A DNA stretch of 64,000 nt from an uncultured Candidatus Planktophila sp. (GCA_964463845.1 CAYXDT010000005.1:23559-87558), one strand, 5' to 3'. Positions 29,137 through 45,090 are shown, numbered from the stretch's first letter. Made by a program: numbers and translations. The notes: generated from the letters alone by a model not told the origin.

Positions 29137-29977
29137 TATTTGGATCCTAGGTGCTCGTCCACGGACCCTAACTGCAGCTGTTGCACCTGTAGCAGTAGCG
29201 ACAGTTCTGGCTGGCGGATCCTGGCGTCCACTTGAAGCGCTCCTGGCTCTAATCGTTGCACTGTCGCTGCAAATTGCCGTCAACTACTCAAATGATTACT
29301 CCGACGGAGTTCGCGGTACTGATAATAATCGCGTTGGGCCAATTCGCCTGACTGCATCTGGCCTAGCCTCTCCCAAGGCGGTAAAAACTGCTGCACTTCT
29401 TAGCTTTGTAATTGCTGCACTCGCTGGGCTAGCTTTGGCAGCGCTCTCCTCTTGGTGGATTCTTATCATCGGAGCTCTCGCAATACTCGCCGCGTGGGGT
29501 TACACCGGAGGACGTTCTCCATATGGATACAGTGGTTTTGGCGAACTTTCAGTCTTTACCTTCTTTGGAGTAGTAGCCACAGTTGGTACCTACTATGTAC
29601 AGACCCTCGAGGTTTCACTCTCAGTTTTGGCAGCTTCAGTTCCGATGGGCACACTCTCTTGTGCAATTCTGGCGATAAATAATATTCGTGACCGCGAACG
29701 CGATGCACAGGTTGGGAAAAATACCCTTGCTGTTCGATTGGGTGATCTTAACTCGCGCCGCTTCTATGTCGCCCTAATTGTTTGCGCATATATCTTTGCA
29801 CCTCTCACCGGTGATCCACTTGCTCTGCTGACTCTGGCAACCTTTCCACAGGCGCGCGCACTTATTCAAGAAGTTTTAGCTGGTGCATCTGGAGAGGCGC
29901 TCATCCCACTACTGGGTAGAACTGGCCAGCTACAACTACATTTCGCCTTGATTTTTGCCCTAGCCCTCTCTTTTTAA
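29132..29977 (+). CDS. menA: DHNA polyprenyltransferase; apparent ATT start
   Basis: Manual translation upstream of the ORF-track start gives (M)NIWILGARPRTLTAAVAPV...NYSNDYSDGVRGTD with no stop; C-term NNIRDRERD..GKNTLAVRLG; in-frame TAA at 29114 and no ATG/GTG/TTG before 29435. Confidence 0.93.
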   Translation: MNIWILGARPRTLTAAVAPVAVATVLAGGSWRPLEALLALIVALSLQIAVNYSNDYSDGVRGTDNNRVGPIRLTASGLASPKAVKTAALLSFVIAALAGLALAALSSWWILIIGALAILAAWGYTGGRSPYGYSGFGELSVFTFFGVVATVGTYYVQTLEVSLSVLAASVPMGTLSCAILAINNIRDRERDAQVGKNTLAVRLGDLNSRRFYVALIVCAYIFAPLTGDPLALLTLATFPQARALIQEVLAGASGEALIPLLGRTGQLQLHFALIFALALSF

Positions 29978-30283: not shown

Positions 30284-31198
30284 TTATAGACCAGAGTAAG
30301 TGTGCTTGCCAGTTCCCCAAACATTTACATATACATAGTTAAATAAGAAGGTCGATCCAGCAAAGATACATAGCCACGCTGCGCGTCGCCCTCTCCAACC
30401 AACCGTTACGCGGGCATGTAGATATGCCGCATATGCCACCCAAGTGATAAAGGCCCAAGTCTCCTTTGGATCCCAGCCCCAATATCTTCCCCATGCCGCC
30501 TCTGCCCAGATTGCACCTGCAATCACAGAGAAGGTCCAGAGTGGAAAGACAAAGGCGACTAAACGGTAAGAGAGTTGATCAAGTACATCTAGTGAGGGAA
30601 CTCTTTGCAACCAGAGTGGTCGGCCTCCTCTACTTTCTCGGTAATCAAGGTATAAAAATCCTCCAGCAACGATATTTGCCAGCAAGAAGACGCCGCCAGA
30701 AATAATTGCAGCAATAACATGGATTACCAACCATGGAGATTGCAGCGCAGGTACAAGAGGCGCACTATCTCTGTAAAGCAAAGTTACTGCTGTCCCCAGA
30801 GTTAGAAGGACACCAAATGAGATAAACAAACCCAACCAACGTAAGTCATATTTGCGAAGAGCGGCTAGATAGGCGGCAGTAAAGGCGAGCGCCCCAGAAA
30901 TTGAAAATTCATACATATTTGACCAAGGTACATAACCAGATGCCAGGCCACGAGCGACTACTCCTCCGAGGAGTAATACAAAACCTAAGCCCATCAGAGC
31001 AGTTGCAATACGGGCTGCTTTTTGAGTTCGCTTGAAATCTAGAGTTTTCACCATCAGATTTCCATCTGTTGAATCAGCGTTTGCTGGTGTCCGAACTGCA
31101 AATGCCGTTTCGAAGGCGTGAGCTAGGAAGGAGAGAGCAAAGACTCCCATCGCAGAGTAGACAAGGTTATTTGAGATGTAGGCCCACGTTGTCTGCAT
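30284..31198 (-). CDS. ccsB: Cytochrome c biogenesis protein CcsB/ResC (system II)
   Basis: WWD motif WAEAAWGRYWGWDPKETW, PWSNMYEF, LQSPWLVIHV, terminal GKHTYSG. Confidence 0.95.
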   Translation of the reverse strand: MQTTWAYISNNLVYSAMGVFALSFLAHAFETAFAVRTPANADSTDGNLMVKTLDFKRTQKAARIATALMGLGFVLLLGGVVARGLASGYVPWSNMYEFSISGALAFTAAYLAALRKYDLRWLGLFISFGVLLTLGTAVTLLYRDSAPLVPALQSPWLVIHVIAAIISGGVFLLANIVAGGFLYLDYRESRGGRPLWLQRVPSLDVLDQLSYRLVAFVFPLWTFSVIAGAIWAEAAWGRYWGWDPKETWAFITWVAYAAYLHARVTVGWRGRRAAWLCIFAGSTFLFNYVYVNVWGTGKHTYSGL

Positions 31199-32664
31199 TA
31201 CTTCTCCCCCTTTATCTTCTTAACAATCTCTGCAATTTCAATATCCAATCCAGGTGCATCATTTTTAGAAAGTCCCGCAATCTCGACCTTCTCACCAACT
31301 ACGCGCACCCAAATTCTGCGTCGCTTACCGTAAAGGGAGGCGAGCAAACCAGCTATAGCAAAGATACCGCCAATGAGCGCGTACTGCTTTCCAGGATCTT
31401 CTACCATCTGCAGATTTACCCAAGGTACAACAGTCTCTAGTGTGATGGAGCCCTCTGGGTAAGAGTAAGTCTGACCGGGTGTGACCGATCCCAACCCAAT
31501 ACGTTCTAGATTATCGGTCTCGATTCGATAGATAGATTGTGGCACCCCGGAGTCAAGGCCCAAATCTCCCTTCCAAATTGCAAAGAGCATCTTTGGGTCA
31601 AGCAGCTCAGGAAAGATTGAAGTTGCCGCTTCTCCTGCTACACGATCTTGCGTTGGCAAGAATGTTGCGACAAAGCCAAGTTGTGGTTCTGCATCTGGAA
31701 CTTTTATGGCGCCGATGGAGCGAAGATTTCCATCCTGCGGCAGAAATGGCACAGGTCCTTGTAGCGCTACATTTCCCGTTGCATCTCTAACTGTAACTAC
31801 TGGGCTATATCCATTTGCTTGTAGATAGACCCGAGTATTCCCAAAGGTCAATGGCTCATTAACTTGGATAACCCTCTTGGATGTGACACCGTTTTCAACG
31901 ACAGTTACAAATGCTGAGTACTCCTTGGGAGCACCCGTAATCGTGTTGTACTCTGCTTCAAATCTATCTAACTTGATTTCAAAGCCTTGCAACTTCGACT
32001 CATTTGATAACTTTCCAAAGGCCAAGGTGTCATATGAGGTTGCGACATTTATAAATCGCTCACCAACATTGATGATTGCCTCACCACGCATACCAAATAG
32101 CGAGCCAAACCCGACCCCGATTAGAATCAAAATCAAAGATAAGTGAAATAGAAGGTTTCCGGTCTCTCGAATAAAGCCCTTCTCAGCCGAGATAGATGTG
32201 CCTTCGTTACGAATTCGGAATCTATTCTTCTTAAACCACGCCTCCGCAAGAGCTAAAGCCTCATCACTTCTAGCAAAATCCTGGTGATGCTCCATTCGCT
32301 CCAAATTCTTTGGTGTTGCAGGAGGTTGGGCGCGCATCGCTTTGAAATGCTCAAAGGTGCGAGGCAAGACGCAACCGATCAGTGAGATAAAGAGAAGGAG
32401 ATAAATTGCGCTAAACCACGGAGAGCCAAAGACATCAAAGAGGTAGAAGCGATCATATAGACGGGCAGTATCAGGATCGCTTATGTAGAACTCGCGAACT
32501 GCAATTGGATTGGTCAGCCGTTGCGGAATCAAAGATCCCGGAATCGCGGCGATTCCCATAAGGAGCAGAAGTATCAGCGCAGTTCGCATGCTGGTCAGCT
32601 GGCGCCATAAATACCGAGCGAGACCAATTACACCTAACTCAGGAAGTTGCGTCTGTTGGCTCAT
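31198..32664 (-). CDS. resB: Cytochrome c biogenesis protein ResB
   Basis: LTSMRTALILLLLMGIAAIPGSLIPQ, SPWFSAIYLLLFISLIGC, GNLLFHLSL. Confidence 0.93.
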   Translation of the reverse strand: MSQQTQLPELGVIGLARYLWRQLTSMRTALILLLLMGIAAIPGSLIPQRLTNPIAVREFYISDPDTARLYDRFYLFDVFGSPWFSAIYLLLFISLIGCVLPRTFEHFKAMRAQPPATPKNLERMEHHQDFARSDEALALAEAWFKKNRFRIRNEGTSISAEKGFIRETGNLLFHLSLILILIGVGFGSLFGMRGEAIINVGERFINVATSYDTLAFGKLSNESKLQGFEIKLDRFEAEYNTITGAPKEYSAFVTVVENGVTSKRVIQVNEPLTFGNTRVYLQANGYSPVVTVRDATGNVALQGPVPFLPQDGNLRSIGAIKVPDAEPQLGFVATFLPTQDRVAGEAATSIFPELLDPKMLFAIWKGDLGLDSGVPQSIYRIETDNLERIGLGSVTPGQTYSYPEGSITLETVVPWVNLQMVEDPGKQYALIGGIFAIAGLLASLYGKRRRIWVRVVGEKVEIAGLSKNDAPGLDIEIAEIVKKIKGEK

Positions 32665-33389
32665 CAGATCACCGGTACAAAATCTGAGATAAGGGAGCGC
32701 ATTTCAATCATCAAATCTGTCCATAAACCAGTTAACTGTAATAGTCCAATAATGATGAGCAAGACGCCACCAATCTTGGAGATGAGATTTCCTCGCTTAA
32801 CCAAGACACGTCGTAGCGCTTGTGATTTATCAAATGATAATCCGGTTGCGATAAATGGCGCACCAAGCCCTATGCAATATCCCAAAGATAAAATTGCTCC
32901 ACGTACGGCACTTGATTCCTGAAAAGCTAAAGCTTGCACACTGGCTAAGCCTGGGCCAATACATGGGGTCCAGCCAACTCCGAAGAGAAATCCCAGTAAT
33001 GGCGCTCCAACTAACCCGCCTGTTGTAGAAATCTTTGGCTGCAAGGTGGGCATAAATGGAAGTGCCCCAATAAAGATAACGCCCATAGCAATAGTGATTA
33101 GGCCCAATACCCTGGTAATCGATTCTTCATTTGTTGCAATGCGCGCGCCAAGTTCACCAAAGAGCACTCCATAAGCGATAAAGAGTGCGCTAAATCCGGC
33201 GACAAAGAGAATTGATCCCAGAAAGACCTTGCCGCGCGATTGCGAAAATCCAGCAGCAAAAGATAGATATCCAGGTACTAATGGCAGAACACAGGGAGAG
33301 AGGAAGGAGATTAAGCCAACTAGAACAGCAATTGGAAAAGCTGTTAGCAAGAAACCATCTAAGAGGTGATTAACAATGAAATCAATCAT
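32664..33389 (-). CDS. ccdA: Cytochrome c biogenesis protein CcdA
   Basis: SFLSPCVLPLVPGYL and GWTPCIGP. Confidence 0.94.
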   Translation of the reverse strand: MIDFIVNHLLDGFLLTAFPIAVLVGLISFLSPCVLPLVPGYLSFAAGFSQSRGKVFLGSILFVAGFSALFIAYGVLFGELGARIATNEESITRVLGLITIAMGVIFIGALPFMPTLQPKISTTGGLVGAPLLGFLFGVGWTPCIGPGLASVQALAFQESSAVRGAILSLGYCIGLGAPFIATGLSFDKSQALRRVLVKRGNLISKIGGVLLIIIGLLQLTGLWTDLMIEMRSLISDFVPVI

Positions 33390-33955
33390 TCGGCGCTCAC
33401 ATCTTCAATTAACTTCGTCAGAGAAGCAATGGTCACAGCGCCCGAAACTCGAGCCGCTACTTTGCCTTCCTTATCAATTACGAGAGTTGTGGGAATGGCA
33501 TTTGCAGGCAGTGATTTACTGAAGCCAACCAGAATTGAATCATCGATAATTGTTGGGTAGGGAATCCCTCTCTTACGTTCAAAAGCTTCAGCATTAACTG
33601 GGTTATCTCGGGTAAGAATTCCGATAAATGCTACATCGGTATATTTACGAGCAAGGGCTGAAAGAATTGGTTCTTCTGCTCGACATGGAGAGCACCAAGA
33701 AGCCCAGACATTAACAACTGCTACTTGTCCCACGGTAAATTTATAGTCAACGCCCTTAAGCGTCATTCCGGATATTGCAGGAGCGCTAATTCGCGTCCCC
33801 TTTTTTATAGTTGTGACAGCTCCATTGCCGGCAATAAAGCTCTCTTCCGCTTGCGATGTCCCACTTGCTCCGCATCCAGCCAGAGCTGAAACCAGAGCCA
33901 GAGCCAGAGCAGGGAATAGTAGGTAGCCTCTGGTTTTATTAATTTGGTTATTCAT
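33386..33955 (-). CDS. TlpA/ResA family thiol-disulfide oxidoreductase lipoprotein
   Basis: Lipobox LAGC, NVWASWCSPCRAE, IPTTLVIDKEGKV. Confidence 0.92.
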   Translation of the reverse strand: MNNQINKTRGYLLFPALALALVSALAGCGASGTSQAEESFIAGNGAVTTIKKGTRISAPAISGMTLKGVDYKFTVGQVAVVNVWASWCSPCRAEEPILSALARKYTDVAFIGILTRDNPVNAEAFERKRGIPYPTIIDDSILVGFSKSLPANAIPTTLVIDKEGKVAARVSGAVTIASLTKLIEDVSAE

Positions 33956-33961
33956 TTGGCT

Positions 33962-34582
33962 TTATTTACTGGGTAAAAGATGCTTTGCGGGTTCAGCATA
34001 GGAGGTTCCGGCAATCATGCCATCGTCATCAAAGTGAATACTGGTGACCGATGCAAGGGTGCACTCTCGTTTGCGCGGATCATGGAGCATCCTTCTTCCT
34101 TCAATGGCGCTACGTAAAATCCAGATTGGTAGTTGATGTGAAACAACTAGCGCATCTTTACCGCCGGCAGCTTTCTTGGCGTCAAAAATTGCAGCTAACA
34201 TCCTTGAGATTTGTTCTTCATATGGCTCTCCCCAAGATGGCTTCCATGGGTTGTATAGATGGCGCCAGGATGAAGGATGTTTTAAAACACCACTTCCTAG
34301 TTCAAATGATTTTCCCTCGAAGATATTGGCTGCTTCGATGAGGCGTTCATCCGTATGAATCTGTAAACCATGAGCTTTGGCAATGGGAGCGGCAGTCTCT
34401 TGCGCACGCTGTAGTGGCGAGACATGAAGCGCACCGAGATCTAGAGTCTTAGACCAATCTCCAACTACTTCTGCCATCTCTTGGCCGCGCTGTGAAAGTC
34501 TCCAACCAGGTTGACGCCCATAGAGAATCTTCTGTGGATTCTCTACCTCACCGTGACGTACAACGTGGACAGTTGGCTGCAT
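33962..34582 (-). CDS. Histidine phosphatase (phosphoglycerate mutase) family protein
   Basis: VVRHGE, SPLQRAQETA, VSHQLPIW; usual position upstream of resA. Confidence 0.92.
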   Translation of the reverse strand: MQPTVHVVRHGEVENPQKILYGRQPGWRLSQRGQEMAEVVGDWSKTLDLGALHVSPLQRAQETAAPIAKAHGLQIHTDERLIEAANIFEGKSFELGSGVLKHPSSWRHLYNPWKPSWGEPYEEQISRMLAAIFDAKKAAGGKDALVVSHQLPIWILRSAIEGRRMLHDPRKRECTLASVTSIHFDDDGMIAGTSYAEPAKHLLPSK

Positions 34583-34632
34583 GGCATAAGGATAAAGCGT
34601 CTATAAAGCGAGTGCTTCGCTAGGGTAGTGAC

Positions 34633-35394
34633 ATGGCACTCACCACGCATAGAGCTGCCTTCTTCGATGTCGATAACACCCTCGTGAGAGGGTCCACACT
34701 CTATTTTCTAGGTCGCGGGATGTACCAGCGAGGCTTCTTCACCAAGGCAGATATCTCAAAGTTTGTCGTGGCAAATATTCGCTTTCGTATGACTGGAATG
34801 GAGAAGAAAGAGGTAATTGAAAAATTCCAAAATGCAGCAACTGATTTTATTGGTGGGCATGCGGTCTCTGACATTAAAAAAATTGGTGAAGAAATTTATG
34901 ACGAGTTTGTCTCGCCAAAGATTTGGCAGGGAACTTTTGAGATTGCAAAATCACATTTAGATAAGGGTGAGGAAGTTTGGCTGGTAACTGCAGCACCTCA
35001 AGATATGGCAGATATAATTGCACAGCGTCTCGGTTTAACTGGTGCGCTAGGTAGCAAGGCGCTAGTTGCAGATGGAATTTATACAGGGGCACTCGATGGA
35101 AAGTTACTGCATGGTGCACAGAAGGCGATCGCGATTCAAGATTTAGCAGCCACGCGAGGCTTTGATTTAAATGAGTGTTTCTCATATTCAGATAGCCACA
35201 ATGACATTCCGTTGTTGCAAGCAGTGGGAAATCCTTGTGCCATAAATCCTGATGCAGTTCTGCGTATCCGAGCTCTAGCAGAGGGTTGGCCGATTCATGA
35301 CTTTCGCAGAGCTCGCTTTCTCAATCGCTTACTTGGGCCCGCAGTCAGTCGCATAGCGGCAGTTGCAACTTGGTTAACCCCGCGCAAGCGCTAA
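34633..35394 (+). CDS. HAD-IB family hydrolase (SerB1-like)
   Basis: AFFDVDNTL, LVTAAP, K in GAQKA, YSDSHNDIPLL, INPD. Confidence 0.92.
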   Translation: MALTTHRAAFFDVDNTLVRGSTLYFLGRGMYQRGFFTKADISKFVVANIRFRMTGMEKKEVIEKFQNAATDFIGGHAVSDIKKIGEEIYDEFVSPKIWQGTFEIAKSHLDKGEEVWLVTAAPQDMADIIAQRLGLTGALGSKALVADGIYTGALDGKLLHGAQKAIAIQDLAATRGFDLNECFSYSDSHNDIPLLQAVGNPCAINPDAVLRIRALAEGWPIHDFRRARFLNRLLGPAVSRIAAVATWLTPRKR

Positions 35395-35419
35395 TTGGTC
35401 AACCCCGCGCAAGCGTTAA
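35370..35419 (+). repeat. Two 25-bp tandem copies of the HAD gene 3' end
   Basis: ttggttaaccccgcgcaagcgctaa followed directly by ttggtcaaccccgcgcaagcgttaa (23/25 identical). Confidence 0.9.
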
Positions 35420-35471
35420 TTCCACTACCAATTCGCACACTTACCTGACTTACGGCTATCGTTGGCAGGTT

Positions 35472-37673
35472 ATGGAAATCCGCTCCTACGCCGATTATCT
35501 GCGCGCCCTCGATGATGGTGCGCTTATTGCCCTCTTCGCTCATCGCCCAGATTTAATAACGCCAATTCCTCCTGATATGGCAAGTCTTGCCGTGCGGGCC
35601 TCTTCTGCTCCAAGTTTGGCGCGCGCTGTAGATGGATTAAACAAGTGGCAGCTGCAAGTTTTGGAGATAGCTGCAATTCTTAATGAGCCATTCACTGAAA
35701 AGGAGTTGACCGCGCTTAGCGATAAAAGTGCTCTCTTTGTACTACCTACGCTAATTGAACGTGGCCTTTTATATTCAGATAAAGATGGATTGCGCACTCC
35801 CACAAATCTGAAGGAGGTCCTAGGTAATGAGATCGCAGGGCTAGGTCCTGCTTCTATGGCTAAGTTAAAATTGAAAAAATTGGATGAAGCGCCAGCGGCG
35901 GCAGAGAAAGTTCTATCTGCAATGGTTTGGGGTCCCCCTCGTGGAACCATTACTGACATTAAGAAACCAAGTACGGGAGTTGCTTGGTTACTAGAAGAAG
36001 GTTTCCTCATCCCCTTCAATCAACAGACCGTTGTGATGCCACGCGAGGTTGCCATTTATCTGCGCGGCAACAAGGTGCACCGCCAATTAGAAGCAGTTGC
36101 ACCAGTACTTACTGGATCACTACAAAAGGCGAAAAACACTCAGTTAAGCGCTATCGCTAATGTGGCGACTCTTCTTCGATGGGTAGAAGAAGTCCTCAAC
36201 TTCTGGGCGCAAGAGCCAGCTAGCGCACTTCGCTCAGGCGGTCTTGGTGTGCGTGATTTAAAAGAGTTATCACAACACTTGGGTGTAGATGAAACATGTG
36301 CAGCATTTATTGCAGAACTTGCCTACATCTCTGGGCTGGTCACAATTGAGGCTGATGACAAAATATTGCCTACCCACCAATTCGATATCTGGCTAACTCA
36401 GAAGGCGTCTCTTCGTTGGCAGTTGTTGGCATCTGCTTGGTTGATAACTTCGCGAGTAGCTGGGCTAACTGGAAAAGAAGGCGGAAAGAATTTAGCTCCC
36501 CTTGGACCTGAGTTAGATCGCATATCAGCAGTTTCAACGCGTGCCTTAATTTTAAATTTGTTAAGAGAGAACCCTGGCCTCTCACCTGACTTCTCTTCAC
36601 TTATGGAGCGCGCCTCATGGCTCTCGCCCGCAAAACGTGCCGGTGGCTTGCAAAGTGATTATGTGGCATGGACCTTGCGGGAATGTGAATGGCTAGGAAT
36701 TACTGGACAAGGTGCGCTCTCCATTTATGGCGAAGAGTTTCTCGCTGGTGGTGATTGTTCTGAGATTGATAACGACCTACCCAAATCCGTTGATCACATA
36801 CTCATTCAGGGCGATAACACCGCAATAGCACCAGGTCCGCTCGAGCATGAAGTTGCACAAGAGTTGGCGCTAATTGCAGATGTGGAATCTCGCGGGGGCG
36901 CAACGGTATTTAGATTTTCAGAAAGTTCCATTCGCCGGGGCTTAGATCATGGCAGAACTGGCGACGAGATCACTAAATTTCTCAAGAAAACATCGAAGAC
37001 GCCAATGCCCCAACCACTTGAGTATCTAATAAGTGATGTTGCTAAAAAGCATGGCAAGTTAAGGGTGGGCAACACCGCCTCATTTATCCGGTGTGAAGAT
37101 CCAGCTCTAATTGCTCAAATAATTGGTGATAAGCGTCTAGATGTTCTGGCCCTACGGAGAATTGCTCCGGAAGTTCTGATCTGCTCACTTGATGCCGCAG
37201 AAGCGATGCATATCTTGAGAAGTTTTGGCTACCTGCCAGCTGGAGAAGATTCTCGCGGGTTGCTCCTTAGTGGTCCAAGAATCCAGAGGGCGCAAGGTCG
37301 AGTGCGACCTCCCAGAATCATTGGTGACTTTGAAAAACCAGATGAGGCGCAAATTGAGAGCGCGCTACGTGCCTTACGTGTTGGCGAAAAATCTAGTCGT
37401 AAGCAGAGCACGATGAGAAATATTGCAGTCGATGCGCTCGGTGCGTTGCCGCGCACAACTGCTAATGAGACTCTCGATATCTTGAGTGATTACCTACAGA
37501 ATCAACCCAATAAATCGCTCTCCATCGGTTATGCCGATAACAATGGCTTGGTTTCACACCGCATCATCGATCCACTTAAATTGTCAGCTGGTTCGCTTAT
37601 GGCTCGGGACCACGCAACTGGTGAGGTACAGACCTTTAGAATCGCGCGTATTACCGGAGTGGCAGCCTTATGA
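35472..37673 (+). CDS. XPB-associated protein with Helicase_C_3 (Tfb2/p52-like) region and C-terminal WYL-like domain
   Basis: LIQGDNTAIAPGPL, ADVESRGGATVFRFSESSIRRGLDHG, PQPLEYLISDVAKKHG; C-term YADNNG..RIIDP..ARDHATGEVQTFRIARI; ATG 35472. Confidence 0.82.
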   Translation: MEIRSYADYLRALDDGALIALFAHRPDLITPIPPDMASLAVRASSAPSLARAVDGLNKWQLQVLEIAAILNEPFTEKELTALSDKSALFVLPTLIERGLLYSDKDGLRTPTNLKEVLGNEIAGLGPASMAKLKLKKLDEAPAAAEKVLSAMVWGPPRGTITDIKKPSTGVAWLLEEGFLIPFNQQTVVMPREVAIYLRGNKVHRQLEAVAPVLTGSLQKAKNTQLSAIANVATLLRWVEEVLNFWAQEPASALRSGGLGVRDLKELSQHLGVDETCAAFIAELAYISGLVTIEADDKILPTHQFDIWLTQKASLRWQLLASAWLITSRVAGLTGKEGGKNLAPLGPELDRISAVSTRALILNLLRENPGLSPDFSSLMERASWLSPAKRAGGLQSDYVAWTLRECEWLGITGQGALSIYGEEFLAGGDCSEIDNDLPKSVDHILIQGDNTAIAPGPLEHEVAQELALIADVESRGGATVFRFSESSIRRGLDHGRTGDEITKFLKKTSKTPMPQPLEYLISDVAKKHGKLRVGNTASFIRCEDPALIAQIIGDKRLDVLALRRIAPEVLICSLDAAEAMHILRSFGYLPAGEDSRGLLLSGPRIQRAQGRVRPPRIIGDFEKPDEAQIESALRALRVGEKSSRKQSTMRNIAVDALGALPRTTANETLDILSDYLQNQPNKSLSIGYADNNGLVSHRIIDPLKLSAGSLMARDHATGEVQTFRIARITGVAAL

Positions 37674-38770
37674 CGAGCGAGAAGTTCACTGAATACGGCA
37701 GACTTAAGCCTATGTTGGATGCCCTAGAGAAGTTGGTTCGCTGTGAATCTCCCAGTGACGATCTAGCAGCATGCCGAGCAGTCGTTGATATTGCCAGCCA
37801 GATAGCACACGAGGTTCTCGGAACTCCAGCGCAGGTTAAGGAGATTGAGGGACGACCTATCTTCTGGTGGGGCGCACAAGAGCCAAAAGTTCTCATCTTG
37901 GCCCATCTCGATACCGTCTGGCCACATGGATCCTTCCAACCGATTTGGGAAGTTTCCGGTGATCAACTACGCGGACCAGGTACATTCGATATGAAGGCTG
38001 GTTTTATCCAAGCTCTCTTTGCTCTCAAAGATATCTCTGGATCTGTTGCCTTAGTTGCCACAACAGATGAGGAGACTGGTAGCCAATCATCCAAGGCGCT
38101 AATTAAAGATCTCTCATCGCGCGCTAAGGCGGTCCTAGTTCTGGAAGCTAGCTTGGATGGAAAGTTAAAGACCGGGCGTAAGGGAACTGCCATGTACCAA
38201 GTGAAGGTACATGGGCTGGCCGCACATGCTGGTTTAGAACCTGAAAAAGGAATTAATGCCACCACTGAAATTGCAAATGTCATTCTTACTATTGCAAAGC
38301 TCGAGGATAAGGAGCACGGGACAACTGTTGTGCCAACACTTCTGCGCTCGGGTAACACCACAAATACTGTTCCAGATTTAGCCGTTCTGGATATCGATAT
38401 CCGTTCCTTTCTAATGAGTGAGTTGGAGAGAGTGGATCGCGCCATTAAATCTCTCGTCGCCGCAAATCCCAAAGCTCGCCTAGAAGTTACAGGTGGCGTA
38501 AATCGCCCTCCACTTGAGCCCAGCGCTACTAAAGAGCTCTACGAAAGAGCAGAGAAAGTCGCGGCGCAATTGGGAATGGCACCTCTTGGATGCGCCTCTG
38601 TTGGTGGTGCAAGTGATGGAAATTTTGCAGCTGCCGCAGGTGCACAGGTGCTGGATGGTTTGGGTGCAGTTGGTGGTGGAGCCCACGCACCGACCGAGTG
38701 GGTAAAGATTTCTTCGCTACAAGAACGTAGCGATTTCCTACATGCCTTTATTAAGGATCTGCTCAAATGA
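37670..38770 (+). CDS. M20 family metallopeptidase (carboxypeptidase G2/ArgE-like)
   Basis: LAHLDTVW, GPGTFDMKAG, TDEETGS, GLAAHAG, GGASDGN, GGGAHA. Confidence 0.9.
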   Translation: MTSEKFTEYGRLKPMLDALEKLVRCESPSDDLAACRAVVDIASQIAHEVLGTPAQVKEIEGRPIFWWGAQEPKVLILAHLDTVWPHGSFQPIWEVSGDQLRGPGTFDMKAGFIQALFALKDISGSVALVATTDEETGSQSSKALIKDLSSRAKAVLVLEASLDGKLKTGRKGTAMYQVKVHGLAAHAGLEPEKGINATTEIANVILTIAKLEDKEHGTTVVPTLLRSGNTTNTVPDLAVLDIDIRSFLMSELERVDRAIKSLVAANPKARLEVTGGVNRPPLEPSATKELYERAEKVAAQLGMAPLGCASVGGASDGNFAAAAGAQVLDGLGAVGGGAHAPTEWVKISSLQERSDFLHAFIKDLLK

Positions 38771-40416
38771 CCGATGGTCCTCTGATTGTTCAAAGTGATA
38801 AAACTTTACTTCTCGATATTGATCATATTCTCTCGACGGAATGTCGCCGTGCGATAGCGCCATTTGCAGAGTTAGAGCGATCTCCAGAGCATATTCACAC
38901 CTACCGCTTAACCAATCTCGGTTTGTGGAATGCGCGCGCAGCCGGACATGATGCAGAGTTGGTAATTGATACTTTAATCAAGTACTCCCGATACGCAGTT
39001 CCGCACTCACTTTTAGTTGATATCGCTGAGACGATGTCACGCTACGGTCGGCTGCGCCTTGAGGCTGATCCAGTTCATGGATTAATTCTTGTGACGACCG
39101 ATACCGGCGTTCTTGAAGAAGTTATTCGTGCGAAAAAGATTGCACCTCTACTTGGAGTACGCATTGATAAAGAGACGATTGCAGTTCATCCCAGCCAGCG
39201 CGGACAGATTAAGCAATCACTTTTGCGGCTAGGTTGGCCGGCTGAAGACTTTGCCGGATATGTAGACGGACAGGCGCACGATATTGCCTTAAAGGAAGAT
39301 GGTTGGAAGATTCGTCAATATCAAGAGCTGGCTGCTGAAGGATTCTGGCATGGTGGTTCTGGAGTTGTAGTTCTTCCTTGTGGAGCTGGAAAGACAATTG
39401 TTGGAGCTGCCGCAATGGCACATGCCAAGGCGACCACTCTTATATTGGTAACCAATACCATCGCAGCTCGTCAGTGGCGTGATGAGTTATTAAAGCGCAC
39501 AACTCTCAATGAAGATGAGATTGGTGAGTATTCAGGTGCCAAGAAGGAAATTCGCCCTGTAACTATTGCAACATACCAAGTTATGACTAAGAAGAAGAAT
39601 GGCGTTTATGCCCACCTTGATCTCTTCGATACTCATGACTGGGGCCTAATTATTTATGATGAGGTACATCTACTACCAGCGCCTATCTTTCGCTTCACCG
39701 CCGATATTCAATCGCGCCGGAGATTGGGACTAACTGCAACGCTAGTTCGCGAAGATGGCATGGAGGCAGAAGTATTCTCATTAATTGGACCTAAGCGATT
39801 TGATGTTCCATGGAAAGAGATTGAAGCGCAAGGTTATATCGCACCTGCGGAATGTATTGAAGTTCGTGTAAATCTCACTGAATCTGAACGGCTTTCATAT
39901 GCAACAGCTGAGCCGGAAGAGCGTTACCGATACTGCGCGACAACTCGCACTAAGCGAAATGTAGTTGAGGAGCTAGTAGCTCATCATGCTGGTGAACAGG
40001 TTCTTGTAATCGGCCAATACATTGACCAACTTGATGATCTATCCGAAACTTTAGGTGTTCCACTTATTAAAGGTGACACTCCTCAGAAAGAGCGTGAACG
40101 ACTCTTCGCAGCTTTCAGAAGTGGCGAAGTAACCTGTCTAGTAGTTTCCAAGGTAGCAAACTTCTCCGTAGATCTTCCTGAAGCAACAATTGCTATTCAG
40201 GTATCTGGAGCTTTCGGTTCACGGCAAGAAGAGGCGCAACGATTGGGCCGAATTCTTCGTCCTAAGGCAGATGGACGTGGTGCAAAATTCTATTCAGTTG
40301 TATCGCGGGATACTATCGATCAAGACTTTGCCCAGAATCGCCAGCGCTTTCTGGCGGAACAGGGTTACTCATATCGAATTATTGACGCCGACGATGTTTT
40401 TCAAGGGAAGCTCTAA
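38767..40416 (+). CDS. XPB/ERCC3/Rad25 family DNA repair helicase
   Basis: LERSPEHIHTYRLT, LPCGAGKT, IIYDEVH, LGLTATLVRED, QRLGRILR. Confidence 0.95.
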   Translation: MTDGPLIVQSDKTLLLDIDHILSTECRRAIAPFAELERSPEHIHTYRLTNLGLWNARAAGHDAELVIDTLIKYSRYAVPHSLLVDIAETMSRYGRLRLEADPVHGLILVTTDTGVLEEVIRAKKIAPLLGVRIDKETIAVHPSQRGQIKQSLLRLGWPAEDFAGYVDGQAHDIALKEDGWKIRQYQELAAEGFWHGGSGVVVLPCGAGKTIVGAAAMAHAKATTLILVTNTIAARQWRDELLKRTTLNEDEIGEYSGAKKEIRPVTIATYQVMTKKKNGVYAHLDLFDTHDWGLIIYDEVHLLPAPIFRFTADIQSRRRLGLTATLVREDGMEAEVFSLIGPKRFDVPWKEIEAQGYIAPAECIEVRVNLTESERLSYATAEPEERYRYCATTRTKRNVVEELVAHHAGEQVLVIGQYIDQLDDLSETLGVPLIKGDTPQKERERLFAAFRSGEVTCLVVSKVANFSVDLPEATIAIQVSGAFGSRQEEAQRLGRILRPKADGRGAKFYSVVSRDTIDQDFAQNRQRFLAEQGYSYRIIDADDVFQGKL

Positions 40417-40624
40417 AGCGTTCTGGATCTACTCTGTAGAAGTCGTGGTGCTCACCGTTGATATGAATAACTGGGACTTCATTGCCATAGAGTTTTTCTA
40501 ACTCAGGATTGCCATCTATATAGATAATCTCAAGCGAAAAATTCAACTCGCTCTCCATATTTTCGAGTACTTTCACAGCGCTTTCACAAAGATGACAGCC
40601 ATGTCGAGAGTAAACGGTGACCAT
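40379..40624 (-). CDS. Glutaredoxin-like protein (DUF836 type)
   Basis: YSRHGCHLCE CxxC, EVPVIHING, FYRVDP. Confidence 0.88.
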   Translation of the reverse strand: MVTVYSRHGCHLCESAVKVLENMESELNFSLEIIYIDGNPELEKLYGNEVPVIHINGEHHDFYRVDPERFRASLEKHRRRQ

Positions 40625-40659
40625 GACTTCATTCTCTCACCCTGATAGCGTTACCCGCT

Positions 40660-43038
40660 ATGAGTCGGCTTTTTCGCATAAATGGACCGCTCTTTATCGC
40701 GCTTGCACTTCTCTTATCTCTTCTTGTACCTACTAAATCTCAAGCACTTACAAAATTCCATGTCGCCCCATCGACGGTTTGGGGGCACACGCTTGCTGGA
40801 GAGAGTGATGGCTCAACTTCTACCCGTCCACCTAAAGTTGCTTATCTAGAGCAGAAATCGAAGTTTGTTGTTAATTACCGAAACTTTCCGGAATGGGCCA
40901 AGCGTGAGTTTCAAGCAGCAGTTAACATTTGGGGAGCTCACTTTGTTTCAGTGCCCACAATTGTTATCGATGCTACTTGGGCGCGCTCTCCAATCTTTGG
41001 AGTTCTCGGAAGTGCGCGGCCAGGAAATTACTACTCTGGATTTGATGGAGCTCCCGATCAAAGTCTCTGGTATCCATCCGCACTTGCCAATGCGCTAGCT
41101 GGCAAAGATCTTGAGCCCGAAAATCCAGAGATGATTATTACCATTAACTCACTTGGTAGCTGGAATACGCGTGGCGACGGTGCTCCAAGTCCAGTTGAGT
41201 TTGATTTGCAATCTGTTCTACTGCACGAAATGTCGCACGGTCTAGGATTTCTCTCAACTGATTCATATGATCAGACATTTGGATTTGGAACTATTGAGCA
41301 GCCGACTCCCTACACGGCATATGCACAACTTCCAGATGGTCGCCGGCTCTCTGATTTACCATCACCATCGATCGAACTTGGTAAAGCGCTGACATCACCG
41401 CTTTACTGGAGCGGTCCATCTGGAACCGCGGCCAATGGTGGCGAAAAAATCCTGCTCTACACTCCTGAAAAATATGAAGAAGGGTCCTCTGTCAGCCATA
41501 TCGATGAGGATACATATTCAAAATTGGGCAGCAACTCTTTTATGACTCCCAACCTTGATCCAGGTGAGGTATTTCGCGCCCCCGGATCTATCTTGCTAGG
41601 AATGATGGAGGATTTACGTCGCAAACCTCCCGTTGGTCTTGCCGTTGGCTTGCCGCAGGTTGTACGAAATGCAGCTGCGCTAGTAGCTGATTCATCAATA
41701 GTTGTGACCTTTGATCCACCAGCTAACGCTCGTACTTCACAGATCACCAGTTACTCTGTGAGAAATCTCCAGACCAATCAAGTCAAGAGTGCGACTGAAT
41801 CACCAATAATCTTCACTGGCTTGAAGAATGGAAGTAACTACAACTTTAGTATCGTGGCATCGAATACAAATGGCACATCCGATGCCGTTATCACTTCACC
41901 AGTTGCTCCACAGGCAGATTGGAAGCGATTTGTAATCGATCCCAACTCAGATGGTAGGCGTGTAACAAGTATCAACTTCAATCAGAAACCTCTCGTTGCC
42001 TATACAGATTCAAATAGTGGGGTCCTGCGTATTGCCACTTGGGATGGAAAGATCTGGCGCAGAACGACTGTTGATGGTGCAGGTGGCAGCGGTGCCCGTA
42101 CTAAATTCAAGATAACAAGTCCTATTTCGCTCTGTGTCAATGGCAGTGGTACCAAACAGCTACTGCATATCTTCTACTCTGAAAGTGACGATAAAGATTT
42201 ACGTTACGCCACCTACGATGGGAGGCGATTGACTCACGAAATCGTCGATGGCAATGGAGCTCAAGTTAACGATTACAAGGATCCCATTCGTGTTCGCACT
42301 GCCAGCGATGTCAGTGTCTCTAGCGCATGCGTGGCAACTGCCGGAGGCGTACAGGTCTTCTACCGTGATGAGAGCCAAGGAATTCTCTTAGGGGCTACAA
42401 AGTTAAAAGGTGCTCCTAATTGGAGATATGAATTAGTTGATGGTGATAGAAAAACCGATGGTCGCACCATGGGTGATGTGGGATTCCACCTAAAGGCGCT
42501 CTTTGATGGCAGGCGCACCTTTGTTGTATATGACTCAGTTCTTACAATTAATCAGAGGAAGCAACCTACTTCAGGTGAAGTCCGAGTCGCTTCTCGCACA
42601 ACTCTCTCAACTGGCCCATGGAGCTATTTCAATCTAGATACCTCTGGCAGTACTAATCCCATGACAGGTTTTGATGTATCGATTGCTAAAACATTGACTG
42701 GGATTCAAGCAGCCTGGCTCATATCTTCACCTGGCACGACACCTGCTCCAAATCGCATTAGATGGAGCCCGCTCTCATCCCCTGCTGGCCAGGGAGTTGC
42801 GACAACTGAAAGCTATGGAGCTCCTGGTAAATATCTAAATACCGATGGCACCTATATAGCATTTAACTGCCAACAACGTCTCTGTGTCCTAGATAGCAAG
42901 CGAGCGATTCCAACAATTAAATTGGTAACTTCTGTTCAGAATCCCGACGGCTTTGACACCGCTTGGACAAATATTAATCGGGTGCGATATTTAGTTACCG
43001 GCGTAAGAGATCAGTTAGTGATGTTCCGTGCTCAGTAG
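40660..43038 (+). CDS. Secreted protein: zinc metalloprotease-like domain + fibronectin type III + repeat beta-propeller
   Basis: Signal peptide ending SQA; HEMSHGLGF, SHIDE and FMTP; FN3-like segment (VVTFDPP..ITSYSV..FTGLKNGSNYNFSIVASN); repeated W/H-xxxx-VDG units. Confidence 0.75.
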   Translation: MSRLFRINGPLFIALALLLSLLVPTKSQALTKFHVAPSTVWGHTLAGESDGSTSTRPPKVAYLEQKSKFVVNYRNFPEWAKREFQAAVNIWGAHFVSVPTIVIDATWARSPIFGVLGSARPGNYYSGFDGAPDQSLWYPSALANALAGKDLEPENPEMIITINSLGSWNTRGDGAPSPVEFDLQSVLLHEMSHGLGFLSTDSYDQTFGFGTIEQPTPYTAYAQLPDGRRLSDLPSPSIELGKALTSPLYWSGPSGTAANGGEKILLYTPEKYEEGSSVSHIDEDTYSKLGSNSFMTPNLDPGEVFRAPGSILLGMMEDLRRKPPVGLAVGLPQVVRNAAALVADSSIVVTFDPPANARTSQITSYSVRNLQTNQVKSATESPIIFTGLKNGSNYNFSIVASNTNGTSDAVITSPVAPQADWKRFVIDPNSDGRRVTSINFNQKPLVAYTDSNSGVLRIATWDGKIWRRTTVDGAGGSGARTKFKITSPISLCVNGSGTKQLLHIFYSESDDKDLRYATYDGRRLTHEIVDGNGAQVNDYKDPIRVRTASDVSVSSACVATAGGVQVFYRDESQGILLGATKLKGAPNWRYELVDGDRKTDGRTMGDVGFHLKALFDGRRTFVVYDSVLTINQRKQPTSGEVRVASRTTLSTGPWSYFNLDTSGSTNPMTGFDVSIAKTLTGIQAAWLISSPGTTPAPNRIRWSPLSSPAGQGVATTESYGAPGKYLNTDGTYIAFNCQQRLCVLDSKRAIPTIKLVTSVQNPDGFDTAWTNINRVRYLVTGVRDQLVMFRAQ

Positions 43039-43042
43039 TCTT

Positions 43043-44245
43043 TTATCCTGCTTTAAAGATATGAAGGCTGGCATCTCGAGCAGTTGCAATTCCAAATAAA
43101 CCAATCTCTTTGGAAAAGGCTAAATTACTGGCACTGATTAAATCAGTTGCACCATTTGCCGCCAGTAACCTGCCCTTGCTATCAAAGGTTAGAACCAATA
43201 ACTGGGCCGCACTTGGGCGCCAGCCAGTTATTCCTTTAATTGCACCTGTTGAACTGATGGCGGCATAACTCTTTCCACCGGATGCAACAATTTGAGAGCT
43301 ACCATTTGTTGGGTAGCGAACAGTCCAAAGTGGGGCAAATGATGAATTGAATCTCGTTATTGCGCTCTCTGTACTTCTACCAACTTTGACAGATCCAGTT
43401 AGCGTTAAAGATGAGTCAGCTGCCAACCATGTACGGTCACCTTTAATGGCAGAGCTGCGTACAACAGATGCAAGAGAACCATTCCTGGCAACTCTTATGA
43501 GAATTCCATCGCGAATACCAGCCAGCCTCTTCCCGGCTAAAGTTTCAGCGCTATCTCCAAAGACGTTTACGCTGCCATCGCTGCCACGTACTACAGAGGT
43601 TAAATTGGTCTTTGCGCTTCCGATAAAAATCGCCTTGCCTATTACACCAGTGAGGGTTGAGTTAACTAGAAAAGATCTCTCTTGAATCTTTCCAACCAGC
43701 GAAATCCCAGTATTGTTTAACGATATTCCACTCACTAGTGGCGCAGCGCTTTGGATTGAAGTATAAGTTGCAAGTAACTCACCGGCGGAGGAAATCTTCC
43801 AGAGAGCTATCTGATTCATATCAGCTCTGATTGGCACGATTGTTTCCAAAATTACTCCATCGGGGTTTTCTGCAGAGGTAACAGCCGTTGCGCTATCTGA
43901 GGCTGTAGTGGCTATAGCTGCTGAGCCAGCGAGCCAGATGTTGCCAGCGTTATCGCTAGCCGCGGTTGTGGCAACTTCATCAACTCCAGAATCAATTGTC
44001 AGCTGCCAGAGGGTCGTTCCTAATACATCAAAACCGGTAACTAGTACGTTGGAGTTGTTTCCACCAGTATTGGAGAAGGTGATCAAACTATTCCCTGATA
44101 CCACTAGCCCTTCCGCTCCTGGGACTGCAAATAGCTTTTCAATCTTCTTTACCGCCACGCTCTTTGGTACTGCAGATGCACTTGGCGAAAGTAAGAGCGC
44201 TGCACCCAGAATTGTTGCAACTACTAGCGCGATAGCTTTTCTCAT
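43043..44245 (-). CDS. Secreted hypothetical protein, probable beta-propeller
   Basis: 400-aa ORF, signal peptide MRKAIALVVATILGAALLLSPSASA, recurring (F/I)-D/S-xx-G-xx-L-W/A units; GTGA overlap with proC. Confidence 0.7.
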   Translation of the reverse strand: MRKAIALVVATILGAALLLSPSASAVPKSVAVKKIEKLFAVPGAEGLVVSGNSLITFSNTGGNNSNVLVTGFDVLGTTLWQLTIDSGVDEVATTAASDNAGNIWLAGSAAIATTASDSATAVTSAENPDGVILETIVPIRADMNQIALWKISSAGELLATYTSIQSAAPLVSGISLNNTGISLVGKIQERSFLVNSTLTGVIGKAIFIGSAKTNLTSVVRGSDGSVNVFGDSAETLAGKRLAGIRDGILIRVARNGSLASVVRSSAIKGDRTWLAADSSLTLTGSVKVGRSTESAITRFNSSFAPLWTVRYPTNGSSQIVASGGKSYAAISSTGAIKGITGWRPSAAQLLVLTFDSKGRLLAANGATDLISASNLAFSKEIGLFGIATARDASLHIFKAG

Positions 44246-45039
44246 CCTTGTGCCAACTCCCCTGCACGGCGCGCTGATGCCGCCATAGCTTCTGCCACTA
44301 TCTCATCGATATTGGCGTCATTAAATACCGCAATCGCTTCAGCAGTTGCACCTTTCAGACTAGTGACGCTCTCACGTAGTTTGGTTGGTGACTCTCCTGA
44401 ACTTTCCAATAAGGCCGCTGCACCAACAATTGTCTGAATAGTTAATGTACTGGCATCTTCATGTGAGAGCCCCATCTTCTCCGCCCCAGCAATCATCGCT
44501 TCCACAAAGCGAAAGAAATAGGCTGGCCCTGAACCGCTAGTTCCGGTAAGTGCATTCTGCAACTCCTCTGGGATCTCAATAGCCTTTCCAGTCGCAGCCA
44601 GGAGTTTGGTAACAAATTCCTTTTGTGGCGCAGTTACAGATTGGCTAAGTGAATATCCAGCCATGCCTTTGCCAATGATCGTTGGAGTATTTGGCATAAC
44701 CCGAGCTATCGGTGTATCTGCCCGCAAGCCCGCAGCGATTCCAGCGATTGTCTTTCCGGCTAGGAGTGAAATAACCAGTGTGTGAGCTGGCAAATCTTTG
44801 GCAATCTCAGGGAGTAATTCAGTCAATCCTTGTGGCTTAATTCCCAGAATCAATACATCGGAGGTGGAGATAGCTGCTCCAAATTCTGCGATATCTATTG
44901 AGTACTTTTGAACTAGTTCAACTCCACGCTCTGGACGTCGCACAACTGCAGTGATTGAAGAGGTTGGAACTCCTGCTCTAATAAGTGCAGCTATAAAAGC
45001 TTCACCCATGGTGCCTGCACCAATGATGCCAACTTTCAT
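44242..45039 (-). CDS. proC: Pyrroline-5-carboxylate reductase
   Basis: GIIGAGTMG, RVMPNTP, SGSGPAYFF, VTSLKGATAEAI; GGAGG SD before ATG 45039. Confidence 0.96.
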   Translation of the reverse strand: MKVGIIGAGTMGEAFIAALIRAGVPTSSITAVVRRPERGVELVQKYSIDIAEFGAAISTSDVLILGIKPQGLTELLPEIAKDLPAHTLVISLLAGKTIAGIAAGLRADTPIARVMPNTPTIIGKGMAGYSLSQSVTAPQKEFVTKLLAATGKAIEIPEELQNALTGTSGSGPAYFFRFVEAMIAGAEKMGLSHEDASTLTIQTIVGAAALLESSGESPTKLRESVTSLKGATAEAIAVFNDANIDEIVAEAMAASARRAGELAQG

Positions 45040-45090
45040 CGCACCTCCATGATTAGCCATAGCGAAAGAGTACGCGTAGGCTCTGCAACT

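Follow-up and report, generated by a model that had tools for sequence, protein, structure and literature searches.

The lack of heme biosynthesis (hem) genes in their conserved slot beside the cytochrome c maturation genes of a Candidatus Planktophila-like genome is a family-wide rearrangement and no marker of heme auxotrophy, a point that is new to this analysis. Heme auxotrophy of the acI lineage is already known; the decoupling of the slot from the auxotrophy is what is added here. The acI bacteria (Nanopelagicaceae) rank with the most abundant bacteria of fresh water, and their dependence on heme, as published, explains their long resistance to cultivation. Evidence from gene order needs care in this group, since an empty slot inherited by a whole family tells nothing of the heme synthesis of any one member. 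We consider it highly probable that the locus bears an old synteny scar rather than the mark of a recent deletion, combined with hem loss elsewhere and with heme import, according to the six-step explanation developed below.

The source genome (1,304,317 bp in 32 contigs, 97.44% complete, about 48% GC) has its closest named proteins and loci in Candidatus Planktophila and Nanopelagicaceae, IMCC25003 among them. In the 64,000-nt stretch of this genome that was analyzed as a whole (the window), the men genes were located upstream of ccsA, with menA, encoding a UbiA-family prenyltransferase (29153..29977, plus strand; Pfam UbiA 2-217 of 250, E 8.6e-32), at the distal edge of the conserved block. 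The ORF called for menA begins only at 29435, since the frame has no ATG, GTG or TTG codon upstream of this position. A run of five minus-strand genes follows: ccsA, encoding a System II cytochrome c synthase subunit (30284..31198; PF01578, E 1.1e-45, profile 1-211 of 212); resB/ccsB, for the heme-handling subunit of the same system (31198..32664; PF05140, E 1.2e-128, profile 1-485 of 486); ccdA, for thiol-reductant transfer across the membrane (32664..33389; PF02683 DsbD_TM, E 2.3e-10; syntenic ccdA in 20/20 outgroups); a gene for a TlpA/ResA-like thioredoxin-fold protein (33386..33955; Pfam Redoxin and AhpC-TSA matches); and a gene for an Rv0525-like histidine phosphatase of the phosphoglycerate-mutase family (33962..34582; PF00300, E 3.3e-36). 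After the phosphatase come four plus-strand genes, encoding a SerB1-like HAD-IB hydrolase (34633..35394; TIGR01490, 164.9 bits), a 767-aa Helicase_C_3 protein of the XPB-partner type (35370..37673; PF13625, E 5.2e-41), an M20 family metallopeptidase/deacylase (37670..38770; PF01546 and PF07687) and the XPB DNA repair helicase (38767..40416; NF045503, 853.1 bits vs. a cut-off of 610). The block is closed by an Rv0508-like glutaredoxin-like (Grx-like) DUF836 gene on the minus strand (40379..40624; PF05768, E 2.3e-20), with proC (44242..45060, minus strand; P5CR_dimer and F420_oxidored Pfam matches) on the outer flank.

By its ORF coordinates, the strandless junction between the phosphatase and HAD genes (34583..34632) is 50 bp long, and it corresponds to the site of hemL...hemB-D-C-A-rex in other Actinomycetia. 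About 35 bp separate the Grx-like gene from the next gene, and the XPB and Grx-like genes overlap. With spacers of no more than 50 bp and this overlap, remnants of hem or rex genes cannot fit in the slot; furthermore, an Rfam search found no element in the window. Such remnants were therefore ruled out. Hence, gene order and profile matches agreed with the reading made earlier from the sequence alone (the sequence-only reading) in that both flanks are kept, hem and rex are gone from the slot, and the HAD gene and an XPB operon lie in the gap.

In the actinobacterial hem-ccs block, as in M. tuberculosis (Rv0508-Rv0512 ... Rv0524-Rv0529) and in Streptomyces (rex-hemACD), the hem genes occupy this position. 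The order given in the sequence-only reading, with the hem genes between the phosphatase and Grx-like genes, was confirmed by comparison with 20 families of Actinomycetia. The ccsA-resB-ccdA-tlpA-phosphatase run was present in all 20 outgroups (tlpA in 19, ccsA in 19), hemL adjoined the phosphatase gene in 17 of them (ccsA-resB-ccdA-tlpA-PGM-hemL), and the full run of hemL..hemB-D-C-A..Grx was found within 20 kb in 13. The outgroup Grx-like gene adjoins hemA or rex-hemA, Rex being placed between hemA and the Grx-like gene in a single annotated outgroup locus. Both flanks of the window, the Grx-like gene on one side and the phosphatase, TlpA, ccdA, resB, ccsA and men genes on the other, keep the order and orientation of this block, but hemL, hemB, hemD, hemC, hemA and rex are absent from it. 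The HAD gene differs too: in the outgroups it is divergent from the Grx-like gene and lies beyond the hem block, whereas in the window it now lies inward of the Grx-like gene, together with the added XPB operon. The median identity of the HAD protein to the outgroup HAD proteins encoded beside the Grx-like gene was 50.7%.

The search was then extended to the whole source genome. HMM profiles for ALAD, Porphobil_deam, GlutR_N, HEM4, URO-D, Ferrochelatase, Chlor_dismutase and the Rex N-domain gave no matches; with PF00490, PF01379 and PF02602, the common-module profiles of hemB, hemC and hemD, matches were obtained in the control genomes and none in the source genome. When ten hem-cluster proteins of a relative from the same genus were used as tblastn queries, only aminotransferase paralogs and Rossmann-motif scraps were recovered, those for hemY being just 63-aa scraps of the Rossmann type. 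The best hemL match, at contig C21:13947-15185, reached 314.6 bits vs. a cut-off of 527.3 and was 31% identical to the HemL of a relative; this candidate was rejected as a true hemL and assigned to the class-III aminotransferases, since it fell under both hemL NCBIfam cut-offs. Thus hemA, hemB, hemC, hemD, hemE, hemH, hemY, hemQ and rex are all absent from the genome, and the full pathway elsewhere that would have contradicted the sequence-only reading was found by neither HMM nor tblastn searches. This gene absence, taken together with the phenotype published for its relatives, suggests that the organism cannot make heme, in agreement, as had been proposed, with the report on acI strains (10.1101/2021.01.11.426183).

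Nevertheless, the slot itself is not the footprint of the organism's own hem loss, contrary to what the sequence-only reading implied. The arrangement of PGM/HAD-HelC3-M20-XPB/Grx was identical in the five hem-positive relatives checked (5/5, from three genera), whose hem genes lie at other, variable places. Nor is the absence of rex special to this slot or organism, because none of the 151 genomes searched in the order has rex. In the same set, hemB was detected in 15 of 151 genomes, including 5 of the 74 from the same genus, and these carried the full cluster; about 1 in 10 species of the current genome set therefore has a full, apparently mobile hem cluster. The ResB tally was 91/91, and the genomes G166 and G174, flagged as unpublished, were counted only there.

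As annotated in genome G027, the compact cluster consists of hemA-C-D-B-L divergent from hemE, hemY, hemQ and hemH, and an MFS transporter is often present in such clusters. The same hem architecture was found in G028, G041, G051 and G060, each time in a different context, and the idea of one deletion scar for the cluster was rejected because the contexts of these five genomes define no unique scar. Two of these clusters are on contigs of plainly Nanopelagicaceae origin: G028 has hemB and resB 42 kb apart on a single contig of 508 kb, and on contig C4 of G027 the cluster is flanked by orthologs that are 70-85% identical to genes of the source genome. In G027 the gap between ribD and nrdJ contains a 24.6-kb block, and the equivalent gap of the source genome holds an FMN riboswitch only. 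The TetR flank is a further variable site. In G060 it carries the hem cluster at the place where an importer module sits in other genomes, and in G027 the Nudix and TetR genes abut directly there.

An incomplete assembly could mimic the auxotrophy if the organism made heme by means of a compact hem cluster within the 2-3% of its genome that is not assembled. Indeed, the missing ~2.6% of a genome in 32 contigs that is 97.44% complete would have room for an accessory cluster of 10 kb; flexible regions assemble poorly, and the hem-positive relatives carry the cluster in variable regions or at contig ends, the hemB of G051 being severed by one. However, nine separate families gave zero matches each, hemB is absent from 69 of the 74 genomes of the genus, and all 19 of the same-genus genomes without a match, among those listed, are single-contig genomes. 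Moreover, both cluster sites of the closest-looking hem-positive genomes are intact in the source genome and are devoid of hem genes, the ribD/nrdJ gap containing only the riboswitch and the TetR side the importer module, and this HmuT-type importer is present in just one of the 15 hem-positive genomes. We regard such an artefact as very improbable.

The preferred explanation, a synteny scar older than the individual losses, would run as follows. In most Actinomycetia, hemL, hemB-D-C-A and (in at least one annotated outgroup) rex stand between the His-phosphatase and Grx-like genes. In the common ancestor of the Nanopelagicaceae/acI, this block would have been removed from the slot and rex lost, the HAD gene and the Helicase_C_3/M20/XPB operon taking the space. 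What heme synthesis survives in the family would be encoded by the compact accessory cluster in variable hot spots, and the Planktophila-like source organism, devoid of this cluster altogether, would have no heme synthesis. As to polarity, the change would be either relocation with many later losses or early loss with regain; the HemB tree is unrooted, and genus labels are mixed along it. If the ancestor lost every hem gene together with the clearing of the slot, and the cluster of about 10% of the species was re-acquired and spread by horizontal transfer, then auxotrophy would be ancestral and the empty slot its original footprint. This course of events is a serious possibility, although we hold it to be somewhat unlikely on balance. 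The layout of the cluster, with contiguous hemA-C-D-B-L and adjacent hemE, Y, Q and H, is unlike that of the outgroups, where hemL lies 2-10 kb from hemB; no two of the five genomes share its genomic context; rex is absent throughout the order (0/151); and the HemB tree mixes genera, placing G041 (genus g1) with G075 (g3) at 99/95 and G027 (g1) with G060 (g5). Yet this is one single-gene, midpoint-rooted tree, and relocation within the genome followed by repeated loss would leave the same slot. The cluster HemB and HemL are 53-61% identical to those of outgroup Actinomycetia, at least as high as the vertically inherited ResB (35-46%), and a foreign donor is not evident. A donor from another phylum was likewise unsupported, because the named nearest metagenomic HemB matches are actinobacterial apart from one labelled 'Paceibacterota', a sequence identical to the HemB of G028.

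The heme users are kept in the source genome, with QcrA, QcrB, QcrC, an intact CtaA, COX3 and KatG. The System II maturation set is complete, comprising full-length ResB and CcsA with their DsbD_TM and Redoxin partners, and its substrate QcrC (contig C2:13762-14553) contains a pair of CXXCH motifs along with Pfam domains of cytochrome c. Since hem genes are absent while System II and the di-heme QcrC are intact, cytochrome c must be matured with imported heme; the proposal that the CcsB/ResB system works with scavenged heme was thereby upheld. A need for heme would thus persist for QcrB, di-heme QcrC, an aa3 oxidase (CtaA and COX3 present) and KatG. Part of the imported heme would be converted by CtaA and part sent outward via ResB-CcsA to mature QcrC, and CcdA and TlpA would keep the CXXCH cysteines reduced in this process.

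The route of heme uptake had been called an open question. It is not wholly open, since Kim et al. (10.1101/2021.01.11.426183; PNAS 2021), who showed the heme auxotrophy of acI strains through growth on hemin, had already named hemTUV-like and dpp-like uptake clusters, and the source genome carries a candidate importer of the HmuTUV-like kind, in which the heme-ligand residues are conserved. In their work dpp-like clusters were present in both strains, and IMCC25003, with a hemTUV-like cluster, grew at 10 pM hemin. The source organism resembles those auxotrophs as a free-living freshwater actinobacterium of ~1.3 Mb that keeps respiration and KatG, is devoid of the ALA-to-uroporphyrinogen and coproporphyrin-branch genes, and has a hemTUV-like candidate in a module shared with IMCC25003. 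Unlike both strains, it encodes no Dpp-type binding protein (PF00496, 0 matches in the genome), and Dpp-type heme uptake was rejected on this ground. The hem-ccs synteny was not part of their study.

The candidate importer is encoded on contig C15, where the gene for the binding protein (C15:8641-9552) is followed by those for the permease and the ATPase. This binding protein is the sole Peripla_BP_2 protein of the genome (PF01497, 91 bits). Its best eleven PDB sequence matches are led by proteins named HmuT, ShuT, HutB or hemin-binding (E 4e-42 to 2e-17). In the alignment with 5az3 (C. glutamicum HmuT), its residues His92, Tyr185 and Arg187 fall on a His, a Tyr and an Arg; 5b51 has Ala at the position of that Arg. 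For the ATPase the best model was the heme ABC ATPase NF010068 (154.8 bits vs. a cut-off of 261), and for the FecCD-type permease the BtuC and FhuB models scored best, below their cut-offs. Most likely, the HmuT-like lipoprotein would bind heme, and the permease and ATPase of C15 would import it.

The permease scores would also fit a cobalamin or siderophore importer, with heme entering by an unrecognised route; the B12-dependent NrdJ encoded nearby implies a need for B12, and half of the hem-negative relatives are devoid of the transporter. On the other hand, B12 (BtuF-type) and siderophore (enterochelin) binders matched the C15 binding protein at 7e-6 or worse, far from the values of the solved heme binders, and all three heme-pocket residues (His, Tyr, Arg) are retained. 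The transporter was found in 1 of 15 hem-positive vs. 69 of 135 hem-negative relatives, and IMCC25003 has the same module. With no cobalamin riboswitch found on the locus and only weak matches to solved B12 binders, a B12 importer was rejected as the main reading, and transport of cobalamin or siderophores in place of heme appears improbable. Because about half of the hem-negative relatives lack the HmuT-like importer, it cannot be the sole route in the family.

Two genes for secreted proteins of 162 and 327 aa, predicted to be beta-sandwiches, are divergently paired with the importer genes, forming a five-gene module, and the pair adjoined the binding-protein gene in 70/70 loci with room for it, IMCC25003 included. 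In Corynebacterium, the hmuTUV heme uptake locus includes two heme-binding proteins of the cell surface, HtaA and HtaB. The two systems are alike in their lipoprotein binder, closest to 5az3 (E 4e-42) with the three ligand residues kept, and in the adjacent permease, ATPase and two secreted proteins; they differ in that the secreted neighbours gave no match to the HtaA Pfam and are probably beta-sandwiches, perhaps nearest to the neocarzinostatin-type apoproteins. To the latter family (PF00960), they scored 18.7 bits (E 0.0018), below the gathering score of 25; PF00960 occurs in 16% of the nearest Atlas cluster, and a precomputed match to it in 3 of the 120 homologs listed. An AF2 model of the 162-aa protein (pLDDT 77) gave macromomycin, C-1027 and neocarzinostatin as the top Foldseek matches (E 3e-5 to 7.5e-4, target TM-score 0.67-0.69). 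A wide VIA-align search singled out neither the neocarzinostatin nor a heme-binding fold, with arrestin, a generic beta-sandwich, at the best Z of 8.3 and apo-neocarzinostatin at rank 19 (Z 6.4) among generic beta-sandwiches.

The search for a hemophore or a receptor for heme in this order was explicitly called for in a 2020 paper (PMC7527133). Heme supply in the Nanopelagicaceae might even be a make-or-take accessory trait, in which the hem cluster and the importer with its secreted pair are alternative cassettes in one hot spot and the pair supplies HmuT as a novel type of hemophore or surface receptor for heme; we offer this only tentatively and think it unlikely as it stands. As judged from its conserved heme-ligand residues and two secreted partners, the candidate uptake module could nonetheless be a concrete lead on heme acquisition at picomolar levels. 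Additionally, Tyr61, Tyr100 and His142 were found to be invariant in the family of the 162-aa protein, and these residues could be heme ligands.

From position 30284 on, ccsA, resB, ccdA, a TlpA-like redoxin gene and a histidine phosphatase gene (phosphoglycerate-mutase family) were found in this order on the reverse strand, followed on the forward strand by genes for a HAD-IB hydrolase, a 767-aa Helicase_C_3-domain protein, an M20 peptidase and XPB. A glutaredoxin-like DUF836 gene (reverse strand) overlapped the end of XPB, and beyond it, up to 45060, lay a large fn3/metalloprotease-like protein, a 400-aa protein of unassigned function and proC; the men genes were on the opposite side of ccsA. 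The annotation of 30284-45060 bore out the gene content and order claimed by the sequence-only reading. The phosphatase and HAD genes were 50 bp apart, the spacing past the glutaredoxin-like gene was 35 bp, and an Rfam search of the window matched no family; hence, there was physically no space for a decayed hem or rex gene. On the men side, a full UbiA-family protein (menA, 29153-29977, forward strand) was readable from 29153 in a frame with no ATG, GTG or TTG ahead of 29435; its start codon is probably a rare one.

For comparison, the DNA upstream of resB was taken from 20 genomes representing 19 further families of this class, with homologs placed by tblastn. The resB-ccdA-(tlpA)-phosphatase run was present in all 20, and hemL immediately followed the phosphatase in 17. 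The complete order from hemL through hemB-hemD-hemC-hemA to the glutaredoxin-like gene was contained within 20 kb in 13 genomes and inverted in one more, so that the hem order cited by the sequence-only reading is a class-wide feature. A single outgroup locus was annotated, and there the ORF separating hemA from the glutaredoxin-like gene was Rex (PF06971 and PF02629). The HAD gene lay beyond the glutaredoxin-like gene in 9 of the 20, in several directly divergent from it. In two outgroup loci (L042 of genome G153 and L051 of G222), the interval from the phosphatase to the glutaredoxin-like gene was free of hem genes; this slot is therefore not inviolable, and its clearing occurred more than once in the class.

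The loss extended beyond the slot. Six-frame profile searches of the genome under study (G000; 1,304,317 bp, 32 contigs, 97.44% complete), in which the window is part of contig C5, all with positive matches in control genomes, returned nothing for ALAD, porphobilinogen deaminase, GlutR_N, HEM4, URO-D, ferrochelatase, the HemQ/ChdC family or the Rex N-terminal domain. A tblastn search of G000 with ten hem-cluster proteins of a same-genus relative added only short nucleotide-binding motifs, and thus no full pathway was found elsewhere in the genome. The hemL model TIGR00713 matched four class-III aminotransferases, the best at 314.6 bits where the cut-off is 527.3. This best-scoring gene, on contig C21 (13947-15185; locus L001:1327-2751), was rejected as hemL, being below every NCBIfam hemL model and 31% identical to the same-genus HemL. 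Its 474-aa product was closest to the glutamate-1-semialdehyde aminomutase and guanitoxin GntE models, below all cut-offs, and is a hemL paralog in a genome without heme synthesis.

Across the order, hemB was detected in 15 of 151 genomes, all of one family: the genus of the Planktophila-type genome accounted for 5 (of 74), a second genus for 8 (of 16) and a third for 2 (of 17). In the same-genus relative G027, a compact cluster carried hemL-hemB-hemD-hemC-hemA on one strand and, divergently, hemE, a radical-SAM/SPASM protein, hemY, hemQ and hemH; four further relatives (G028, G041, G051 and G060) shared this architecture. Since hemB lay 42 kb from resB on a single 508-kb contig in G028, and the G027 cluster was flanked by orthologs of G000 genes (70-85% identity), both hem contigs genuinely belong to the family. 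All five of these hem-positive genomes showed the identical HAD, Helicase_C_3, M20 and XPB set, with no hem gene, between the phosphatase and the glutaredoxin-like gene, and none of the 151 genomes yielded a rex gene. These results indicated that the clearing of the slot and the loss of rex are old and family-wide, and that the heme-making ability of a member is determined outside the slot. The empty slot had been read as agreeing with the reported acI heme auxotrophy: the slot is indeed empty and the hem genes are gone genome-wide, but the rearrangement is common to heme producers. In G051 (L022:8895-10696), the XPB match was in two pieces about 100 bp apart, which could reflect an insertion or a frameshift.

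The neighbourhood of the hem cluster differed in every genome examined. In G027 it lay inside a 24.6-kb block between ribD and nrdJ, together with methylcitrate-cycle genes and pyruvate phosphate dikinase. About 650 bp separate ribD from nrdJ in G000, where the intervening FMN riboswitch, together with nrdJ, marks the junction of this block. This riboswitch, upstream of ribD, and a SAM-IV riboswitch further along contig C15 were located at L031:14556-14683 and 1496-1605. The cluster adjoined an ortholog of G000 C5:16844-17581 in G028, was flanked by orthologs from G000 contigs C9 and C8 in G041 and G051, and directly adjoined a TetR gene in G060. In a single-gene, midpoint-rooted HemB tree, which is compatible both with relocation followed by many losses and with loss followed by regain, all family sequences formed one clade (100/100) separate from 14 outgroup sequences, within which genus labels were mixed (G041 with G075, 99/95; G027 with G060). 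This mixing hints that the cluster has moved around among family members. The radical-SAM/SPASM protein between hemE and hemY (L015:14496-15701 in G027, L017:14796-15965 in G041), missing from the clusters of G028, G051 and G060, could provide an oxygen-independent step (AhbD- or HemN-like), and a roughly 470-aa MFS transporter adjoining hemH at the cluster edge (G060 L018:1186-2589, G027 C4:46256-47659, G051 L016:1378-2808) may export porphyrin or heme.

Heme users were retained in G000. Flanked by COX3, QcrA and QcrB, the frame at C2:13762-14553 encodes 263 aa and combines cytochrome c domains with two CXXCH motifs; only five other ORFs of at least 100 aa had a single CXXCH, CtaA was intact and KatG had a frame of 733 aa. 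Since ResB and CcsA were full-length in the window and hem genes were lacking, System II must run on imported heme, in agreement with the earlier proposal of cytochrome c maturation on scavenged heme.

The closest named proteins and loci belonged to Candidatus Planktophila and Nanopelagicaceae, with strain IMCC25003 among them. In its core, the finding is already known, as acI heme auxotrophy has been published: all 20 acI isolate genomes lacked the pathway, and hemin was required at 10 pM by IMCC25003 and 100 pM by IMCC26103 (Kim et al., 10.1101/2021.01.11.426183). Both strains carry dppABCDF-like clusters, and IMCC25003 alone a hemTUV-like one (10.1101/2021.01.11.426183). An earlier paper pointed out that no member of the Nanopelagicales had a heme pathway on record and called for a hemophore or heme receptor to be demonstrated (PMC7527133). 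The parts that merit further study are the secreted partner proteins and the possible alternation between making and taking up heme described below.

The uptake route, left open by the sequence-only reading, now has a concrete HmuTUV-like candidate with two unexplained secreted partners. After the gene for the single Peripla_BP_2 protein of G000 (C15:8641-9552) come those for a FecCD-type permease and an ABC ATPase, the latter scoring best, though below the cut-off, against the NCBIfam heme ABC ATPase model. Against all PDB sequences, the best eleven matches of the binding protein (4e-42 to 2e-17) were led by proteins named HmuT, ShuT, HutB or hemin-binding; binders of B12 or siderophores came in no earlier than 7e-6. 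His92, Tyr185 and Arg187 aligned with His, Tyr and Arg of 5az3, and in the sister entry 5b51 this Arg is replaced by Ala, in keeping with these entries being HmuT of C. glutamicum and mutants of its heme pocket. The locus had no cobalamin riboswitch, and a genome-wide search for Dpp-type binding proteins gave no hit.

Outside the window, two genes that run divergently from that of the binding protein (C15:9637-11120; L031:6538-8021) encode secreted proteins, 162 and 327 aa long, with one domain in common. The 162-aa family has more than 1,200 members, all unnamed and from freshwater metagenomes, and the secreted-protein family shows four invariant Cys along with invariant Y61, Y100 and H142. 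The nearest Foldseek neighbours of its AlphaFold model (pLDDT 77) were the macromomycin, C-1027 and neocarzinostatin apoproteins, the PF00960 match was sub-threshold and VIA-align gave a generic beta-sandwich only; the common domain is modelled as a beta-sandwich closest to neocarzinostatin-type apoproteins.

Of the 150 other genomes in the order, 70 encoded the binding protein, and in all 70 the 162-aa gene was adjacent; likewise, the two were side by side at 70 of 70 loci with room, including IMCC25003 and Ca. P. versatilis. The usual order, across 80 species loci, was Nudix / ATPase-permease-binding protein / 162-aa, 327-aa / TetR-DinG. This module was present in 1 of 15 genomes with hemB versus 69 of 135 without (Fisher p = 0.0008, a significance overstated because the genomes are related). 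In the hem-positive G027, Nudix and TetR were 62 bp apart without the module, and in G060 the hem cluster occupied the TetR flank that adjoins the module elsewhere. The rarity of the module in hem-positive genomes and the occupancy of this site support a heme-uptake role for the module, and suggest that heme synthesis and uptake may be alternative accessory cassettes.
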